A stretch of DNA of 64,000 bases, from contig CAJTUR010000001.1 in NCBI GenBank assembly GCA_910579535.1, positions 26,587-90,586 on the forward strand, read 5' to 3'. This DNA comes from an uncultured Bacilli bacterium (lineage in GTDB: Bacteria; Bacillota_I; Bacilli_A; RF39; UBA660). Within the stretch, counting starts at the first letter, position 1, and every line of letters begins with the position of its first letter. The position numbers and the translations under genes were made by a program. Below the pieces are notes generated by a model. The model made no database searches. It saw only the letters and a program-made list of their open reading frames with translations, and had not been told where the DNA came from. Shown here in pieces: positions 3,612-42,679 of the stretch.

Positions 3612-4135
3612 TTTTCTTCACCTATTTCTTTTTCATAATAAATATAAGTTCCAGGGTAATCGTCATAATTAAAGGTCCCTTTTTCTATATAATTTAATTT
3701 TTTAAAAAAGTGATTCATTTTTAAATTCCTTTTTTCGGTATCCGCTTTTAAGACTTTAATCTTTTCTTTTTTAGCTTTTTGTTCGGCAAATTGAAAGAGG
3801 CTACTCGCAAAACCTTGATTTTGACAAGATTTTTTAATAGCCAAACGATGAAGAATAAAAGCCTCTTTTTTACTATTTTCAATTAGGTCATCGTATTCTC
3901 TTGTATCTTTTTCAATAACAATAAATCCCTTAATTTTATCTTTTTCTTTATAAACAAATAAGTTTCCTTTTTCAATATCATTTGGGATTTTACATTCTGG
4001 ATAATTCTCTTCACTCCATTGAGGGTTATTGTTTTCATCCATTTCTAATTTTGATTCATCGATAATGGCTAGGATTTCTCTTATATCGTTTTTTTGGGCT
4101 TTTTCAATCATTTTTATTCCTACTTTCCTAAGCAA
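3608..4135 (-). CDS. GNAT-family N-acetyltransferase (alternative start at 4111)
   Basis: 175-aa ORF; HRLAIKKSCQNQGFASSLF matches the acetyl-CoA binding motif A of GNATs; sits between mnmE and mnmG. Confidence 0.7.
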   Translation of the reverse strand: MLRKVGIKMIEKAQKNDIREILAIIDESKLEMDENNNPQWSEENYPECKIPNDIEKGNLFVYKEKDKIKGFIVIEKDTREYDDLIENSKKEAFILHRLAIKKSCQNQGFASSLFQFAEQKAKKEKIKVLKADTEKRNLKMNHFFKKLNYIEKGTFNYDDYPGTYIYYEKEIGEEK

Positions 4136-6299: not shown

Positions 6300-7301
6300 T
6301 TATTTACCTCTTTTCTTATTTTCCTTTTTATCTTTACTTTTTACTGGTTTAATTAAATTGGATTTTTTCTCATTTATTTTTTTAAAGATAAAATTTTGAA
6401 GAACAACAAACCCATTGGTAACCACCCAATATAGAGCTATTGCTGTAGGTAAACTAAATGACGCAATGGAAATCATAACAATCATAAAGATTAAAGTAAA
6501 TCGCATCTGACTTTCTATTGCGCTGTTGACGCTTTGATTTTTCATTGAATTTTTAAATGAAAAATAAGTTGTTCCTACTATCAAGATAATTAATAGTATA
6601 TAAACGTATTTTCCTTGACTAATTCCTACCCAAGGTGTCATGCCTAGTTTCATACCCAGTAAACTGTCTTCAAAAATAGCTGGAACACGATTAATAGCTT
6701 GAAGAAAGGCAAAGAATAGGGGTAATTGAATAAAAGCAAGTAAACATCCAGATACAGGATTGATTTTATATTTTTTATAGATCAACATGGTTTCTTGACT
6801 TTTCATCATCATGGCATCTGAGTCTGTACGTCCCATATATTTCTTTTCAATTTTTTGAATTTCAGGAGCAGCTTTTTTCATATTCTCTGATTGATCCATT
6901 GTTTTTTTAGAAAATGGTAAAAGAATTAATCGAATACCCATTCCTATTAACATAACAGAAATACCAAAGTTTTTTATTAATATTCCTAATTTTAAGATGA
7001 TATACGCTAAGGGTTTTACAAATAGAGATTCCCATAAACTTTTGTATTTTATATCACTAGGTTTAAATGCTTCACAGGAAGGAAGGTCTTCAAGTTTTAT
7101 TGTTAACTGATCATTGTATTTTTCATAGACTTCATAAAGTTTTTGTTCTCTTGGTTTACAAAGAATATTATTTTGAAGACTTTGACCTGTTTCTTCAAAA
7201 GTAACAATATTCTTATCCTCTTTTAAGTAAGTTTTATTTCCACAGCCTGTTGTTAATAATAAAATACTGATTGTTAATACCGCTATTTTTTTTATTTTCA
7301 T
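6300..7301 (-). CDS. yidC: Membrane protein insertase YidC/OxaA/SpoIIIJ (lipoprotein type)
   Basis: 333 aa; lipobox LLTTGC; multi-pass hydrophobic core; conserved position between rnpA and jag. Confidence 0.85.
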   Translation of the reverse strand: MKIKKIAVLTISILLLTTGCGNKTYLKEDKNIVTFEETGQSLQNNILCKPREQKLYEVYEKYNDQLTIKLEDLPSCEAFKPSDIKYKSLWESLFVKPLAYIILKLGILIKNFGISVMLIGMGIRLILLPFSKKTMDQSENMKKAAPEIQKIEKKYMGRTDSDAMMMKSQETMLIYKKYKINPVSGCLLAFIQLPLFFAFLQAINRVPAIFEDSLLGMKLGMTPWVGISQGKYVYILLIILIVGTTYFSFKNSMKNQSVNSAIESQMRFTLIFMIVMISIASFSLPTAIALYWVVTNGFVVLQNFIFKKINEKKSNLIKPVKSKDKKENKKRGK

Positions 7302-18616: not shown

Positions 18617-18644
18617 TGCTATTTTTTTATATTATTGATATTAT

Positions 18645-18722
18645 TTGTTTGTGCAACGAATATATTGTAAACTGGTCAGGATCGGAAGATAGCAGCCACG
18701 TCAGTCCCTATTCGTGTGCACT
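18645..18722 (+). ncRNA. ffs: Small (4.5S-type) signal recognition particle RNA
   Basis: GGTCAGGATCGGAAGATAGCAGCCACG matches the universally conserved SRP RNA domain IV (E. coli GGUCAGGUCCGGAAGGAAGCAGCCAAGG); closing helix TGTGCAACGAATA/TATTCGTGTGCAC; followed by T8; lies upstream of tadA-dnaX as scr does in Bacillus. Confidence 0.6.
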
Positions 18723-18741
18723 TTTTTTTATAGGTGATTTT

Positions 18742-28224: not shown

Positions 28225-28740
28225 ATGAAGTCAACTGGTGTGATACGAAGAATTGATGAACTCGGACGTATTGTTTTACCAAAAGAAATAAGAAGAAATT
28301 TAGGGATTAGAGAAGGGGAAAATTTAGAAATTTTTGTTGAAGAAGATAAAATGATTTTAAAGAAGTTTTCTAAAATAAAAGATTATGAAGAAATTATTAA
28401 AAGTATTGGAGAAATTGTAGCGAATATTTATGATCATAAAATTATTGTAACTGATAGAGAAAAAGTAATATATAGTAATATAGAAAATATAGAAAGTGTC
28501 AGTCTTGATAAAAATTTGATAAATTTTATTCAAAATCGTGAAAGTGTTTTAAAAAATAGTTTGCAAGCTTATCATTTTAATGAGGAATTAAAAGGGTATT
28601 ATTTTATTATGCCAATTATTACATCAACGGATTGCTTGGGCTTAGTTTTAATTTATAGTGAAAAAGAACTTAAAGAAGAAAATATTAATTTATTAAAATT
28701 AGTCACTGTTTTGATAAGTAGTAAGATTGATATTGCTTGA
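28225..28740 (+). CDS. spoVT: Stage V sporulation regulator SpoVT (AbrB-type N-domain + GAF-like C-domain)
   Basis: N-terminal swapped-hairpin motif RRIDELGRIVLPKEIRRNLGIREGE; 171 aa; position after mfd as in B. subtilis. Confidence 0.8.
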   Translation: MKSTGVIRRIDELGRIVLPKEIRRNLGIREGENLEIFVEEDKMILKKFSKIKDYEEIIKSIGEIVANIYDHKIIVTDREKVIYSNIENIESVSLDKNLINFIQNRESVLKNSLQAYHFNEELKGYYFIMPIITSTDCLGLVLIYSEKELKEENINLLKLVTVLISSKIDIA

Positions 28741-28759
28741 AAATAAAAATGAATTATGA

Positions 28760-28972
28760 TAAGATACCTTTAATTAACGAAGAAGGAAAGAGTACTGTTT
28801 TGGACTTTTGTAGAGAATTTGCGTTTGGTGAAAGCAAATAAAGAAAAAAGTAGGAAGATGGGTCTGGAGTTAAATCGATTAATTCTCGTTACGAAGGAAA
28901 GTGCGTGTTAAAATCACGAATTAAGGTGGTACCACGGGTAAATTGCTCGTCCTTAATTTGTGATTTTTTTTG
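28760..28972 (+). promoter_or_regulatory. T-box riboswitch leader (antiterminator/terminator)
   Basis: Canonical T-box sequence AATTAAGGTGGTACCACGG at 28919-28937; mutually exclusive terminator AAATCACGAATTAAGG / CCTTAATTTGTGATTTT followed by T8; AGAGA-like element in stem I; RBS GGGAG then ATG 28984. Confidence 0.75.
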
Positions 28973-28983
28973 TTTAAAGGGAG

Positions 28984-30091
28984 ATGAAAGTTATGAATTT
29001 AAGTGAAATTAATCAAAGAATCAGTGATAGAAGCGATTGTTTTTATTGGCAAACTGATAGAAAAATAAGTGCTCAAGAAGCATCTATGATATGGAAAGAT
29101 AGACATTCAGCTATAATTAATGAAGAATTATTAGATAAAGTCAATTTAGAATTAAAGGGTGATCGAGTCATTTCAATTGATTTTGATGAAAAGATTCAGA
29201 TGAGTTCCAGCAATGTTAATTCAATAAGAGTTGGAGTTTTAGAAAGTGGAAAAGAAGTCATTATAAGGTGCCATCCTAAAGGAGTTAAAAATGGGTATTT
29301 TTATGTTGAAAGTTTAGCTTCTCAAATTGCATTAGAAAATGGACTTCCTTCATATAAAACTTATTGTATTCATGAATTAGAAAATGAGAATGATATTTCT
29401 TATCAAGTTATAGAGAAGTTAAGTGGAGATACCGTTCAATTTTGTTTAAAAGAACACCCTGAAAAAGAAGAACGACTTGTTATGGAAATGGGTAAAACAA
29501 TGGCAAGACTTCATAAAATAAAAATTAATGGATTTGGTCCTTTTGATAATGAACAAGCTAAAAATGGTAAACTTGTAGGAAAATATGAATCATTAAAATG
29601 CTGGATTAGAAGAAAATCTTGAAAGATTAGTAAAATATAATATTTTAAGTAAAGATATGGCTGATAAAATGAAAGCATTATTTGATGATAATGAATTACT
29701 TAATTCAGATGTATCAGTTTTAATTCATAATGATTTTGCTGATTGGAATTTGTTAACTGATGGTAATTCAATTACAGGTATTATAGATTGGGATGAATGT
29801 GTTGCCGGAAATCCTATAGAGGAAATCGCTTGTTGGTCAACATTTTTTGAACCAGAAAGAATAAAACCATTTTTAAAAGGTTATTTTAGTGACATTCCAA
29901 TATATGACCATTTTGATGAGATGTTTCAATTAATGAGATTAAGGTATACTATTTCAAAAATGGCATTAAGAATTAAAAGATATACTTATGAACAAACACC
30001 TTTTTTAGAAAGTATGATTGAAAAAGGTAAAAAGCATTTGGATGAGTTAATAGAAATATTTCAATTAAATGATTGTAATAAAAAAATATAA
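28984..30091 (+). pseudogene. Phosphotransferase-family (APH/choline-kinase fold) gene split by a frameshift near 29597-29620
   Basis: ORFs 28984-29622 and 29657-30091 are N- and C-halves of one kinase-fold protein (Brenner motif IHNDFADWN, IDWDE). The downstream reading frame is already open from 29597 and reads ..AGLEENLERLVKYNILSKDMADKM.., so a 1-nt indel in a short A-run joins the two halves. Confidence 0.6.
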
Positions 30092-30136
30092 TTTAAATAA
30101 AAAAGGTTTACAAATATAATAGTAGGAGGATTGCTT

Positions 30137-30870
30137 GTGAATAAAGTTGCTATGATTACTGGTGCTAGGAGAGGCTTAGGTCTTGCAGTTGCTAAAAAAT
30201 TTGCGGGGGGGGGTATAATATTGTTTTAAATGATAGAGAAGAGTACGAAGAATTACTAGAAATACAAAAAGAATTGGAAGAAAAGTATTCCGTTTCTTGT
30301 TTCGTGTGTTTTGGAGATGTTGCTAATGAAGATGACGTCATGAAAATGTTAGAAAATGTAAAGAGTGCGTTTGGTAGACTTGATGTTTTAGTAAATAATT
30401 CGGGAATTGTCTATGATATGGAACTAGATGAGCGACCTACAAGCATTTTTGAGGAAACCATGCATAATAATGTAACAGGAACCTATTTGATGAGTAAGTA
30501 TTTTGGGCATTTTATGTTTGAAAGTGAGAAAACAACAAGAATTATAAATGTTGCAAGTACAAATGGAATGGATTGTAATTTTCCAACAAGTATTGATTAT
30601 GATGCTTCTAAGGCAGCAATTATTTCTCTAACAAAAAACTTTGCTCTTGAATATGCACCAAGAATTCTTGTGAATGCAGTGGCTCCTGGATGGATTAAGA
30701 CAGAAATGAATTCTGATTTACCTGAAGATTTAGTTTTGGAAGAAGCCTCTAAAATATATTTGAAAAGATTTGCTGAACCGAGTGAAATAGCGAGTTTAAT
30801 TTATTATTTAGGTAGTGATGAAAATACTTTTGTAAATAATGAAATTATTAAAATTGATGGTGGTTATTAA
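30137..30870 (+). pseudogene. Short-chain dehydrogenase/reductase (FabG-like) frameshifted at a 9-G homopolymer (30195-30203)
   Basis: GTG 30137 gives MNKVAMITGARRGLGLAVAKKFAGGG (Rossmann TGxxxGxG), then a frame change in GGGGGGGGG continuing into ORF 30274-30870 (NNSG, catalytic YDASKAA). One extra G would restore a single roughly 245-aa SDR. Confidence 0.65.
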
Positions 30871-31006
30871 AAAGACTAAAAATAGAATATTTTTATAAAA
30901 TAATACAGAATCTTCTATTGAATTTTTAGTAATGTAAAAGAAAAATGAATTTTTAATTGATAAATGAATTTAAAAAATAGAGTATAAATTAGAAAAGAGG
31001 TAAGAA

Positions 31007-32521
31007 ATGAAAGAAAAATATTATATTACAACAGCGATAGCGTATACATCAAGTAAACCTCATATTGGAAATACGTATGAAGTTGTTTTAGCAGATGCTA
31101 TTGCAAGATATAAAAGATTAAAGGGGTATGATGTTTATTTTCAAACTGGAACAGATGAACACGGAGAAAAAATTGAGAAAAAAGCAAAAGAGGCAGGCAT
31201 TACCCCTCAAGAGTATGTCGATAAAGTAGCAAGAGAGATAAAAAGTATTTGGGATTGTATGAATACTTCTTATGATAAATTTGTGCGTACTACTGATAAG
31301 AACCATGAACGAGTAGTTCAAAAGATTTTTAAAAAAATGTTTGATAAAGGAGATATTTATTTAGATTCGTATGAAGGGCCTTATTGTGTTCCTTGTGAAT
31401 CTTTTTGGACAGAAAGCCAACTGGTTGATGGTAAGTGTCCTGATTGTGACAGAGAAGTGGAATTAAAAAAAGAAGAAGCTTATTTTTTTAAGTTAAGTAA
31501 GTATCAAAAAAGGTTGATGGAGTATATCGAAAGTCATCCAGAATTTATACAACCTGAAGCGCGAAAAAATGAGATGATAAATAATTTTCTGAAACCTGGC
31601 TTGCAAGATTTATGTGTTTCTAGAACGTCCTTTGATTGGGGGATACCTGTTTCCCATAATCCGAAGCATAATGTTTATGTTTGGCTTGATGCTCTCACGA
31701 ATTATATTACGAATATTGGTTACGATATAGATGAGTCAAGTCCGGAATTTAATAAATGGTGGCCAGCTGATTTGCATTTAATTGGAAAAGATATTATTCG
31801 TTTTCATACGATTTATTGGCCTTGCTTTTTAATGAGTTTGAATTTACCTTTACCTAAACAAGTTTTTGGTCATCCGTTTCTTATTATGAGTGATGGCAAG
31901 ATGAGTAAATCCAAAGGAAATGTTATTTATGCGGATGATTTAGTTAATGAATTTGGCGCAGATGCGATTCGTTATTATATGCTTCATGAGATTCCATTTG
32001 CAAGTGATGGTGTTTTTTCAAGAGAACTATTAATCGAAAGAATTAATGGTGATTTAGTAAACATTTTAGGTAATTTAGTGAATCGAACATTAGCGATGAG
32101 TAAAAAGTATTTTTCTAATCATTTAGAGAATAAGGGAGTAGGAACTTCTTATGATGTGCAACTTCTATCAATGGTTAATGCTTTGGAAATGAGAGTGGAA
32201 GAGAAAATGAATACTCTAGAAATTGGAAGTTCTATTGACGAAATCTTTGAAGTTCTTAGAAGGTGTAATAAATACATTGATGAAACCACGCCTTGGGTTA
32301 TAGCTAAAGATGAGAGTAGGAAAGCGTGTTTGGAAACTGTTCTTTATAACTTAGTTGAAGCAATACGAGTTTGTGCTTTATTTTTAGAACCGTTTTTACC
32401 AAACACAAGTGAAGAGATTATTAAACAAATAAATATAAAGGATAAGAATAGGCAGTTTAATAAAGAAAACGTTTATGATTTAAATGAAGCTAAAATTTTA
32501 TTTCAAAGAATTGAAGTTTAA
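31007..32521 (+). CDS. metG: Methionyl-tRNA synthetase (short form without the C-terminal tRNA-binding domain)
   Basis: HIGN (HIGH) and KMSKS motifs, zinc knuckle CVPC..CPDC. Confidence 0.95.
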   Translation: MKEKYYITTAIAYTSSKPHIGNTYEVVLADAIARYKRLKGYDVYFQTGTDEHGEKIEKKAKEAGITPQEYVDKVAREIKSIWDCMNTSYDKFVRTTDKNHERVVQKIFKKMFDKGDIYLDSYEGPYCVPCESFWTESQLVDGKCPDCDREVELKKEEAYFFKLSKYQKRLMEYIESHPEFIQPEARKNEMINNFLKPGLQDLCVSRTSFDWGIPVSHNPKHNVYVWLDALTNYITNIGYDIDESSPEFNKWWPADLHLIGKDIIRFHTIYWPCFLMSLNLPLPKQVFGHPFLIMSDGKMSKSKGNVIYADDLVNEFGADAIRYYMLHEIPFASDGVFSRELLIERINGDLVNILGNLVNRTLAMSKKYFSNHLENKGVGTSYDVQLLSMVNALEMRVEEKMNTLEIGSSIDEIFEVLRRCNKYIDETTPWVIAKDESRKACLETVLYNLVEAIRVCALFLEPFLPNTSEEIIKQINIKDKNRQFNKENVYDLNEAKILFQRIEV

Positions 32522-32575
32522 ATTATTTATTGACTTGATTTTTTAGAAGAAATAAAATAATTTTTGGGGGTTTTT

Positions 32576-33487
32576 ATGGTTAAATTTGATTTTAAAAGAG
32601 ATTTGCTTCATGCTAAAAATGTCATTTTAAAGAATGATGAGCAAGCGTGTATTTATAAAAAATATTGTAGAATTCCTATTAAAGGGACAGAAAATGTGAA
32701 AGAGCTTTTTAAAAAAATGTTTGATTTTAATACTATTTTAATCGTCACAGGAAGTGGGGATCAAATTTTGGAAGCCATTCTTTTAGGGGCGTCTAGAGTT
32801 CAAGCATTTGATATTAATAAATTAGCAAAATATGGTTGTGTTCTTAAAATAGCTTCTATTAAAGCTTTAGAATACGATGAATTTGTTGATTTTTATTCTA
32901 GTCAATTCTATAATTCTTATTATAAAAAAATTAGAAAATTTTTGACTGGACATTATTTAAGATTTTGGGATATTTTGTTTCAATCTTTTTCACCTTTTCA
33001 AATTTTCTTTTCCCTTTTTGATTCGGTGAATCATGATGGAGAGATTATAGATAATAATTTTTCCATCTATTCAAGGAATGAGTATGAACTTATAAAAAAA
33101 AGAATTCCGCATGTTTCTATTCATTTTACAGACTTAGATTTAATGCATATTAAACAGGAGGTGAATGATTCATTTGATTTTATTTATCTTTCCAATATTT
33201 ATCAGTATTTATCCTCTACACCTAAAAATTTTAGCGAATTTATAAAGCAAAATTTATGGTGTTTATTAAGAAATAATGGAGAACTAATTTTTAATTATTA
33301 TTATGGTGCGGCAGGTGAATTACGAAAAAATTTTTTTCCAGCAAGTGCTTATTCTTATATGAGTTCTGTTAAAAATGAATGTGATGCATTTAATCATTAT
33401 TTTGATGTTCAAAAATATGAAGTCTTGCCTTCTGGGTATGGTCAATCTTATTTTACAAAAGATTTGGTTTTGTCATTAAAAAAGTGA
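32576..33487 (+). CDS. Hypothetical protein with Rossmann-like VTGSGDQ motif (possible SAM-dependent or DUF3419-like)
   Basis: ATG 32576 with a GGGGG RBS (the track starts at TTG 32564); no confident family. Confidence 0.5.
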   Translation: MVKFDFKRDLLHAKNVILKNDEQACIYKKYCRIPIKGTENVKELFKKMFDFNTILIVTGSGDQILEAILLGASRVQAFDINKLAKYGCVLKIASIKALEYDEFVDFYSSQFYNSYYKKIRKFLTGHYLRFWDILFQSFSPFQIFFSLFDSVNHDGEIIDNNFSIYSRNEYELIKKRIPHVSIHFTDLDLMHIKQEVNDSFDFIYLSNIYQYLSSTPKNFSEFIKQNLWCLLRNNGELIFNYYYGAAGELRKNFFPASAYSYMSSVKNECDAFNHYFDVQKYEVLPSGYGQSYFTKDLVLSLKK

Positions 33488-42300: not shown

Positions 42301-42339
42301 TATAGAAAATAATAAAAAAATATTGTATAATACGAATAT

Positions 42340-42410
42340 GGGGATATAGTTTAATGGTAGAATAGTAATCTCCAAAATTAAAGATGTGGGTTCGATTCCC
42401 ATTATCTCCA
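42340..42410 (+). tRNA. tRNA-Trp (anticodon CCA) carried on the element
   Basis: Cloverleaf folds; GGGGATA/TATCTCC acceptor, GTTTAATGGTAGAAT D-arm, anticodon loop CTCCAAA, TGGGTTCGATTCCCA T-arm. Closely parallels B. subtilis tRNA-Trp (GTTTAACGGTAGAAC..CTCCAAA..TGGGTTCGATTCC); one G:A mismatch at the top of the anticodon stem; no encoded CCA end. Confidence 0.8.
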
Positions 42411-42679
42411 TTTTTATTAAACTAGCAATTCTCGATTCCTTGGTGTCTATAGCAACACTAGTTTTGCCTATGAGTATTTCCATTATAATTGTTATGATAA
42501 ATCTTATCATAAAGCTATTAGTTGAAAAGAAAGAGGGTACTATGATAACAATAAAAGGTGTAAACTGCAGTGTTTATGTAGGTAACCTATATGTTGGTTG
42601 TTATTGTAAAGGATAGAGTTTTGTATAGATTTGCAGTTGAGGTGTGAATCCTCTTACCTACACCATTTTTGGGTATTAA

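Follow-up and report, generated by a model that had tools for sequence, protein, structure and literature searches.

A predicted methionine T-box leader parted from its conserved partner metG by decaying inserted genes in an uncultured gut Bacilli bacterium

Introduction

Which gene does a T-box leader regulate when the reading frame directly behind it is a broken kinase gene? The question is raised by a 64,000-nucleotide stretch of DNA from an uncultured low-GC Bacilli bacterium (contig CAJTUR010000001.1 of assembly GCA_910579535.1, positions 26,587 to 90,586 of the forward strand), hereafter the window, in which a T-box leader RNA lies behind an AbrB/SpoVT-like gene and is followed by a gene for an APH-fold kinase, a gene for a short-chain dehydrogenase/reductase (SDR), both of them out of frame, and metG, the gene for methionine--tRNA ligase. 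All features from the leader's promoter-like site to metG are on the plus strand, and positions are counted from the first letter of the window. A first-pass annotation, made from the letters alone, had treated the arrangement as an anomaly and had offered two ways out of it: either the kinase is amino-acid related, for example as an APH-fold homoserine kinase or a methylthioribose-kinase-like enzyme, or the leader originally served metG and a two-gene cassette was inserted and is now decaying. The comparisons given here favour an altered form of the second. We consider it likely, with a probability of about 0.8, that we are dealing with a transcription-attenuation leader of the T-box type, specific for methionine (AUG) and with metG as its conserved target, and that inserted genes are decaying between the two.

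The leader RNA and its specifier codon

A single T-box is matched by Rfam in the 64-kb window (RF00230, positions 28771-28957, 113.3 bits against a gathering score of 93, E 2.8e-24), and the match runs the full length of the model (1-219). Six nucleotides upstream of its start ends a promoter-like site found by consensus scan (28737-28765; TTGAAA, a 17-nt spacer and TAAGAT with a TG extension), which may drive the leader, and the AbrB/SpoVT-like gene upstream, recognized by profile matches, occupies 28225-28740. Stem I contains AGAGUA (28789-94), AGAGA (within 28811-17), UGGUGAAAG (28826-34) and GAAGAUGG (28854-61), and has the GA/K-turn motif, a specifier loop (AGUA...GAA S-turn, codon then purine), an AG bulge and the distal-loop motifs. 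Stem II and the Stem IIA/B pseudoknot are missing, the Stem II columns being deleted in the covariance-model alignment; what remains of this region is a IIA/B-like hairpin (CGAUUAAUUCUCG) with an F-box, CGUUA (28887-91), ahead of Stem III and the antiterminator. Such an architecture has precedent, as Stem II is not universal and glyQS leaders do without it (PMC7583486). The distance from specifier to T-box is 66 nt here and 59-69 nt in 17 of 45 metG leaders of relatives. At 28862-28900 we thus observe a Stem II-less leader with an AUG codon, where Stem II-less leaders are classically those of glycine (GGC).

These relatives come from a comparison set of 80 metG loci from species-representative genomes, among which the 45 leaders locatable by their T-box motif were aligned. 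Taking the Rfam consensus specifier position together with this alignment, the specifier codon is AUG (Met) at 28858-28860, followed by the purine G28861; it lies in the specifier loop GAAGAUGG, whose 3' strand, GAAGAUGGGUCU, has AUG plus G at the consensus codon-plus-purine position of the Rfam alignment. ATG stands at the specifier position in 44 of the 45 aligned leaders, while the base 5' of it varies (G, C, T or A) and the base 3' of it is G, or A in three leaders (L075, L083, L092). Two other codons present in the loop GAAGAUGGG, UGG (Trp) and GAU (Asp), were considered as specifiers and are both ruled out by the alignment: GAU because the base preceding AUG varies freely, and UGG because the base after AUG is A in those three leaders. 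Reading the specifier had been proposed as a check by the first-pass annotation, and on this evidence the leader is read as methionine-specific.

The T-box sequence itself (AATTAAGGTGGTACCACGG / AAUUAAGGUGGUACCACGG, 28919-28937, by sequence and Rfam) holds a 7-nt bulge, UGGUACC, at 28927-28933, in which UGGU would be able to pair with the ACCA 3' end of a tRNA by the established T-box mechanism (PMC7583486). The published pattern of the discriminator region, 5'-RRRxG-Stem III-AA-3' followed by the A1 and A2 helices on either side of a 7-nt bulge starting with UGGN (PMC7583486), is found here as AAGUG-CGUG...CACG-AA, followed by AAGG/CCUU and ACGGG/CUCGU flanking UGGUACC.

Folding predicts an intrinsic terminator at 28911-28971, with its 5' strand at 28911-28926, its 3' strand at 28951-28966 and a U8 tract at 28964-28971. 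The hairpin 28911-28966 running into U8 has a predicted energy of -31 kcal/mol (z = -3.3; 0 of 200 shuffles fold as well), and the T-box with terminator described after spoVT in the first-pass annotation is borne out. A transcript ending at 28960 is predicted to form Stem III and the bulged antiterminator (-15.0 kcal/mol), and the addition of 28961-28967 to give an extended hairpin of -24 to -25 kcal/mol, the lower 12 bp of which use the 3' strand of Stem III. The antiterminator helices are in this model nested inside the terminator: A1 and A2 persist in the OFF fold, and Stem III (28904-28918), the competing structure, is displaced. Viewed from the antiterminator, the terminator is a downward extension of it, in which the pairing partner of 28951-28966 is the segment 28911-28926, made up of the 3' strand of Stem III, the AA linker and the 5' strand of A1. 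About 20 of the 45 related metG leaders have this Stem III-displacing terminator and the others a canonical one, and we regard the design, which rests on modelled folds, as functionally plausible. The terminator stem also differs between leaders, with CACG opposite GUG here and CAUG opposite AUG in relatives.

metG is the conserved partner of the leader

At 31007-32521 metG encodes a methionine--tRNA ligase of the short form (504 aa; NF008900, 748.6 bits), and it is the conserved distal gene of the T-box operon. Of the 80 related genomes, 29 have the T-box motif 62-102 nt ahead of metG, usually with a spoVT-like gene or mfd just before it, which answers the question, posed with the original annotation, whether a T-box directly precedes metG in orthologous loci. 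Fourteen other genomes have a single T-box 505-1649 nt before metG, with one to three unrelated genes between: 10 genomes have a dUTPase there, 2 have a NUDIX hydrolase and 1 has a YjjG-like HAD pyrimidine nucleotidase, while the closest species (L022) has an SDR that shares 67% identity with that of the window. Each of the loci of L022, L024, L027, L030, L048 and L052 has a single T-box by Rfam at gathering score. The inserted open reading frames (ORFs) end at most 5 nt from the metG start or overlap metG in 12 of the 14 genomes, and the gap is 22-25 nt in L022 and L025. In all, metG is the leader's conserved partner in 44 related loci. Because of these direct and insert-bearing loci we assign the leader to metG for this clade, and see in the stretch between the two a recurrent site of gene insertion. 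As to the nature of the inserts, those in L024, L025, L026-L030, L033-L036, L048 and L075 are all nucleotide-pool house-cleaning enzymes packed tightly against metG.

Within the window, metG has no T-box of its own, as had been annotated: when 28700-31100 is scanned permissively with Rfam (E<=1), the one leader is matched and no second or degenerate T-box appears before metG. Between the SDR gene and metG lies an AT-rich spacer of 136 nt and 15% GC (30871-31006), in which Rfam and a consensus promoter scan find no T-box, terminator or plus-strand promoter-like site; a site was defined by at least 9 of 12 consensus matches, and 46 such sites occur in the 5.5-kb region. The plain promoter region that had been described before metG is thus not seen. 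Nor is any terminator or consensus promoter predicted between 28972 and 31006. As no second T-box, predicted terminator or consensus promoter separates leader from metG, which are on the same strand, and as inserted genes are operonically packed against metG in relatives, metG is probably still the regulated gene, and we infer from sequence that it would be co-transcribed with the leader by read-through over about 2 kb of decaying cargo.

Alleles of the locus within the species

The window represents a minority form of this locus. The majority form, carried by 22 of the 24 contigs read with an identical SpoVT protein and by L107 (JGI), has the T-box at the same place (113.1 bits) and then a pyridoxal-phosphate aldolase-like gene (PF01212, 346 aa), a gene with an AlaXM-like editing domain (225 aa), an intact kinase gene (369 aa), the SDR gene (244 aa) and metG. 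The two genes absent from the window span 6913-8643 in L019, where the aldolase-like protein has weak matches to LtaE and GntG and the AlaXM-like protein has intact HxxxH and CxxxH motifs. The form without them is also found in L008, L009, L011, L015 and L020, of which L008 and L020 are two excerpts of one contig and the others differ in sample and assembler. The window and the majority form are 98.6-98.7% identical to either side of a 1896-nt gap; the junction, placed at 28972-28992 by aligning the window with the left and right flanks of L019, marks the loss of the aldolase-like and AlaX-like genes, and the gap ends in two purine-rich ribosome-binding (Shine-Dalgarno) regions. The leader is identical or near-identical in the conspecific contigs L008, L011, L018, L019 and L021, and in the window nothing is broken in the leader, its promoter-like site or its terminator, which differ from the majority allele at one position, in the antiterminator loop. 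The annotated history of a two-gene cassette inserted before metG and now decaying is accordingly upheld in its outline by the AUG specifier and by the 29 relatives with the leader directly before metG, and needs correction in its size, the insert of this species being four genes.

The deletion leaves the kinase gene directly behind the leader, and here, too, the gene is split as annotated (PF01636, 65.6 bits vs 23.2), with a different cause. An N-terminal fragment (28993-29622; PF01636) loses frame after 29598, and the C-terminal part, with HNDFADWN and IDWDE, continues in the +1 frame (29600-30091, ORF called from the ATG at 29657). Relative to intact conspecific copies, an 11-nt deletion, GATGCTATAAA, lies between 29598 and 29599, and not a single-base frameshift; it removes ...SLKDAINAGLE..., shifts the frame and separates the N lobe from the catalytic C lobe, so that the uninterrupted coding sequence of a functional APH-family member is lost. 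The site is otherwise 98% identical to the intact copy P0001/L001.

That a lone lesion should break a gene otherwise conserved at 98% might suggest an assembly or sequencing artefact, an explanation that we hold to be extremely improbable. The lesion is an 11-nt deletion and not a homopolymer slip, and it is identical in the window, L008, L009, L011, L015 and L020 and missing from L001, L018, L019, L021 and L107; both lesions (1896 nt and 11 nt) are seen again in five more contigs, which represent at least four samples, with the 11-nt deletion always on the 1896-nt deletion haplotype. Because the lesion is identical across contigs from different samples and assemblers, the pseudogene is taken as real on the compared sequences. 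The simple assembly error that the first-pass annotation had named as its refutation therefore fails for the kinase, and keeps some weight for the SDR, discussed below.

In the majority allele L019, a 21-codon ORF (MVLIEKDKSNYYSGDGFSGWE, 6757-6822) with a good ribosome-binding site stands between the terminator and the aldolase-like gene; its similarity to the kinase family is not significant. A kinase 5' remnant after the T-box of the four-gene form, suggested by a 65-nt BLAST overlap, was rejected (best E = 2.7 in blastx against 120 kinase homologues), the overlap being an AT-rich chance similarity plus two ribosome-binding sites. A defence-system role of the four cassette proteins found no meaningful match in PADLOC, and a foreign composition of the cassette was dismissed, as GC and GC3 match those of host genes.

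The SDR gene and its poly-G tract

The SDR gene (30137-30870; after repair, PF00106 157 bits and PF13561 167 bits) has the cofactor motif TGARRGLG (TGxxxGxG) and the catalytic motif YDASK (YxxxK), and, as had been annotated, it is frameshifted before metG. The cause is a G9 tract at 30205-30213, in Gly-Gly-Gly codons, of which a G10 or G7 version would restore the frame; it is the only G/C run of at least 6 in the 64-kb window (28% GC). The gene is intact (244 aa) in L008, L009, L011, L015, L018-L021 and L107. Tract length is variable in the manner of a phase-variable locus, with G10, in frame, in 11 conspecific contigs and G9 in two, the window and L013, and a metagenome scan for further poly-G alleles gave one more conspecific contig only, with G10. 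In the sister species (L022, 6318-6325) the same Gly codons hold a G8, again out of frame. As an observation apart, a second poly-G tract is found in relatives (L103-L105, around 3680-3701), where G9, G10 and G11 alternately keep and break a gene of metallo-beta-lactamase fold.

The variation in the SDR tract could be phase-variable slippage or assembly error. A homopolymer-length error in sequencing or assembly, with the strain's SDR in truth intact, is a serious possibility to which we give somewhat less than even odds: over 6 kb the window differs from L008 by the poly-G base alone, 11 of 13 conspecific contigs have G10, and other frameshifts occur in these metagenome assemblies, such as that of DUF3419 in L107. 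Set against an error are the return of G9 in the independent assembly L013, the out-of-frame G8 of L022, the second tract that varies from G9 to G11 in relatives, and three consecutive GGG codons, unexpected where GGG makes up 12.9% of the Gly codons in the window, which would fit a maintained slippery tract with real length heterogeneity. The tract resembles the poly-G contingency loci of the Campylobacter type in being a G9-G10 run near the 5' end of a coding sequence in a genome of 28% GC, with length differences between conspecifics and a second variable tract. It is unlike them in that the gene is here a cytoplasmic SDR, and not a surface or restriction-modification gene, and in that the variation is known here from assemblies alone.

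Which gene does the leader control?

The kinase belongs by sequence to the APH fold, its HNDFADWN and IDWDE motifs, of the APH forms HxDxxxxN and IDW(D/E), being invariant in 31 homologues. Among NCBIfam models it neither passes nor approaches any equivalog cut-off, those of resistance families included. The closest solved structures by sequence are hygromycin-B 4-O-kinase (E 2e-6), macrolide 2'-phosphotransferases, APH(2'') and capreomycin kinase. Modelled with AlphaFold (pLDDT 81.7), the intact homologue P0001 is APH-like, and Foldseek with this model returns the same antibiotic-kinase families, together with FN3K and YtaA, at 14-16% identity (probability 1.0, TM-score 0.55-0.73). With APH(4)-Ia, APH(2'')-IVa and Mph the kinase has in common the PF01636 fold, the HxDxxxxN catalytic loop and the IDWD metal-binding motif, and some of its homologues adjoin recombinase or Mob genes; it differs from these enzymes in the low identity, in some 70 extra residues and in the distance from every resistance-family cut-off. 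Both sequence and model suggest that it resembles the antibiotic kinases (APH(4), APH(2''), MPH) and not methylthioribose or homoserine kinase. A search for the family gave 618 matches, the best 120 of which are 70-98% identical and 363-397 aa long, and homologues at 74-84% identity stand in unrelated and varied contexts: with serine recombinases and a Mob relaxase (L002-L004), with DUF2207 genes (L005-L007), between YibE_F genes (L102), or after a PBP5-type peptidase, a metallo-beta-lactamase-fold gene and a serine hydrolase (L103-L105). Two candidate associations were rejected on the way. A T-box that travels with the kinase is ruled out by the lack of any Rfam T-box in the seven loci scanned (L001-L007), which have 84%-identical kinase genes, and kinase plus SDR as a conserved module is ruled out by L104/L105, where the SDR that adjoins the kinase is only 27% identical to that of the window. 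The picture from sequence is one of a movable accessory gene for which no link to methionine is detectable.

Methylthioribose kinase (MtnK) and type II homoserine kinase have the APH fold. That the T-box evolved to regulate the kinase, as an enzyme of methionine or amino-acid metabolism of one of these kinds, would suit the position of the kinase as first ORF after the leader in the window's allele and its weak NCBIfam match to the homoserine kinase model PRK05231 (18.5 bits, E 8e-4). We judge it very unlikely all the same, and with it the amino-acid role once proposed for the kinase: the score is far below the cut-off of 271, no MtnK model of NCBIfam matches at E<=0.01, and the solved structures that come closest are those of hygromycin, aminoglycoside and macrolide kinases, FN3K and YtaA. 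Two other genes moreover separate leader and kinase in the majority allele, close homologues adjoin recombinases, Mob or unrelated genes without a T-box at the seven loci scanned, and the gene is dispensable, having been inactivated in a circulating lineage. The kinase is therefore an 'immediate target' only by position. It is unlikely, if less so, that metG is now expressed mainly from a promoter of its own in the 136-nt spacer, and that the T-box is stranded in the window's allele and controls only pseudogenes. The spacer is unusually long next to the 22 nt of L022 and the 0-5 nt after inserts in other relatives, its GC content is very low, and with long stretches upstream left untranslated an internal promoter would be favoured by selection; against this stand the lack of any plus-strand site of at least 9/12 in 30871-31006, where the 5.5-kb region has 46, the near-unchanged state of the leader, its promoter-like site and its terminator, and the inserts that abut or overlap metG in relatives, by which read-through from the leader would be the clade's normal arrangement. 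A further account, that the gap between leader and metG is a recurrent landing site that puts unrelated genes under the control of tRNA-Met charging to adaptive effect and not by accident, that the poly-G of the SDR is a slippage switch modulating metG by polarity and that the leader represents a Stem II-less Met class with a Stem III-displacing terminator, strikes us as an unlikely proposition. If it were true, nucleotide-pool sanitation (dUTPase, NUDIX, YjjG-like nucleotidase) could be coupled to methionine or one-carbon starvation, and in this species an AlaX-like editing factor and an antibiotic-kinase-like enzyme could be coupled to defects in tRNA charging.

The assignment of metG as target has its own weak points. 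Chief among them is the spacer, for in so AT-rich a genome a weak promoter in 136 nt of 15% GC could escape a consensus scan, and the co-transcription of metG with the leader is itself inferred. Through premature stops about 640 nt ahead of metG go untranslated, with polarity as a possible result; the terminator departs from the textbook form, as the 3' strands of A1/A2 are not its 5' strand, and switching is deduced from folding and conservation; and the order of events, with the four-gene form first, follows from parsimony.

For a metG leader with decaying inserts we propose the following course. By analogy with the established mechanism (PMC7583486), the anticodon of uncharged tRNA-Met would pair with AUG in the Stem I specifier loop and its free ACCA end with the UGGU bulge. 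Stem III and the antiterminator would thereby be stabilized, the extended terminator (28911-28966 with U8) would not form, and RNA polymerase would read on. Within the clade, which consists of uncultured low-GC gut Bacilli, promoterless genes in the same orientation would repeatedly have entered the gap that parts leader and metG, four of them in this species (pyridoxal-phosphate aldolase-like, AlaX-like, APH-fold kinase and SDR). The window may then be a derived minority allele, in which the 1896-nt deletion between two ribosome-binding regions fused the leader to the kinase and the 11-nt deletion subsequently inactivated it; in the window's sequence the SDR, too, is out of frame, apparently by the loss of one G from the G10 tract.

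Neighbouring features

Downstream of metG in the window the gene order is DUF3419, tatD and then rsmA. The DUF3419 gene (32564-33487; BtaA-like, with an S-adenosylmethionine-dependent fold) begins 42 nt past metG, behind a promoter-like site at 32530-32558, and is split into two frames in the JGI contig L107 (5758-6679). The only other Rfam or ARAGORN matches in the window are a tRNA-Trp gene (CCA anticodon, 42339-42411) and a small signal recognition particle RNA (18640-18737), and neither program found a tRNA-Met gene in the window with which the leader could be compared.

Relation to known T-box systems and significance

Methionine T-boxes are known before metS of Bacillus cereus (predicted) and metICFE-mdh of Staphylococcus aureus (characterized; PMC3771891). 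A metS T-box in Bacillus subtilis was considered and rejected, as Table 1 of the same paper lists no Met T-box for B. subtilis and one (metS) for B. cereus. The leader of the window has in common with those two the AUG specifier, a Stem I with GA motif, AG bulge and distal loop, a T-box bulge followed by an intrinsic terminator, and a probable target in the supply of methionine or tRNA-Met; unlike them, it has metG last behind unrelated cargo, lacks Stem II, and has a terminator predicted to compete with Stem III and not with A1/A2. As in glyQS-type leaders, the IIA/B-like hairpin and Stem III come almost immediately after Stem I. Those leaders are thought to do without Stem II because GGC:GCC pairing is strong (PMC7583486), whereas the codon here is AUG.

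T-box operons in which a tRNA ligase does not stand first are documented, and about 8% of T-boxes precede genes of unknown function or of no amino-acid function (PMC2494555), which makes the anomaly of a T-box before a gene unrelated to amino acids weaker than it had been stated to be. As in those operons, the specificity of the leader matches a ligase that lies downstream of another gene; in contrast to them, the genes in between are not the same in all close relatives (dut, NUDIX, HAD, SDR or the four-gene set), show polymorphism inside a single species and can be seen to decay. In kind the finding is an ordinary one, and the apparent anomaly disappears when the operon is followed as far as metG and set beside its relatives. 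Its main value is as a correction: where a T-box precedes a gene without amino-acid function, the transcription unit should be followed to its last gene before anyone proposes a new regulon member. The locus also offers natural variants for the study of T-box mechanics, an AUG codon without Stem II and a terminator that would compete with Stem III. For the evolution of these bacteria, the four-gene, two-gene and broken forms show, within one species, how promoterless cargo may come and go in the space that separates a riboswitch-like leader from an essential gene.

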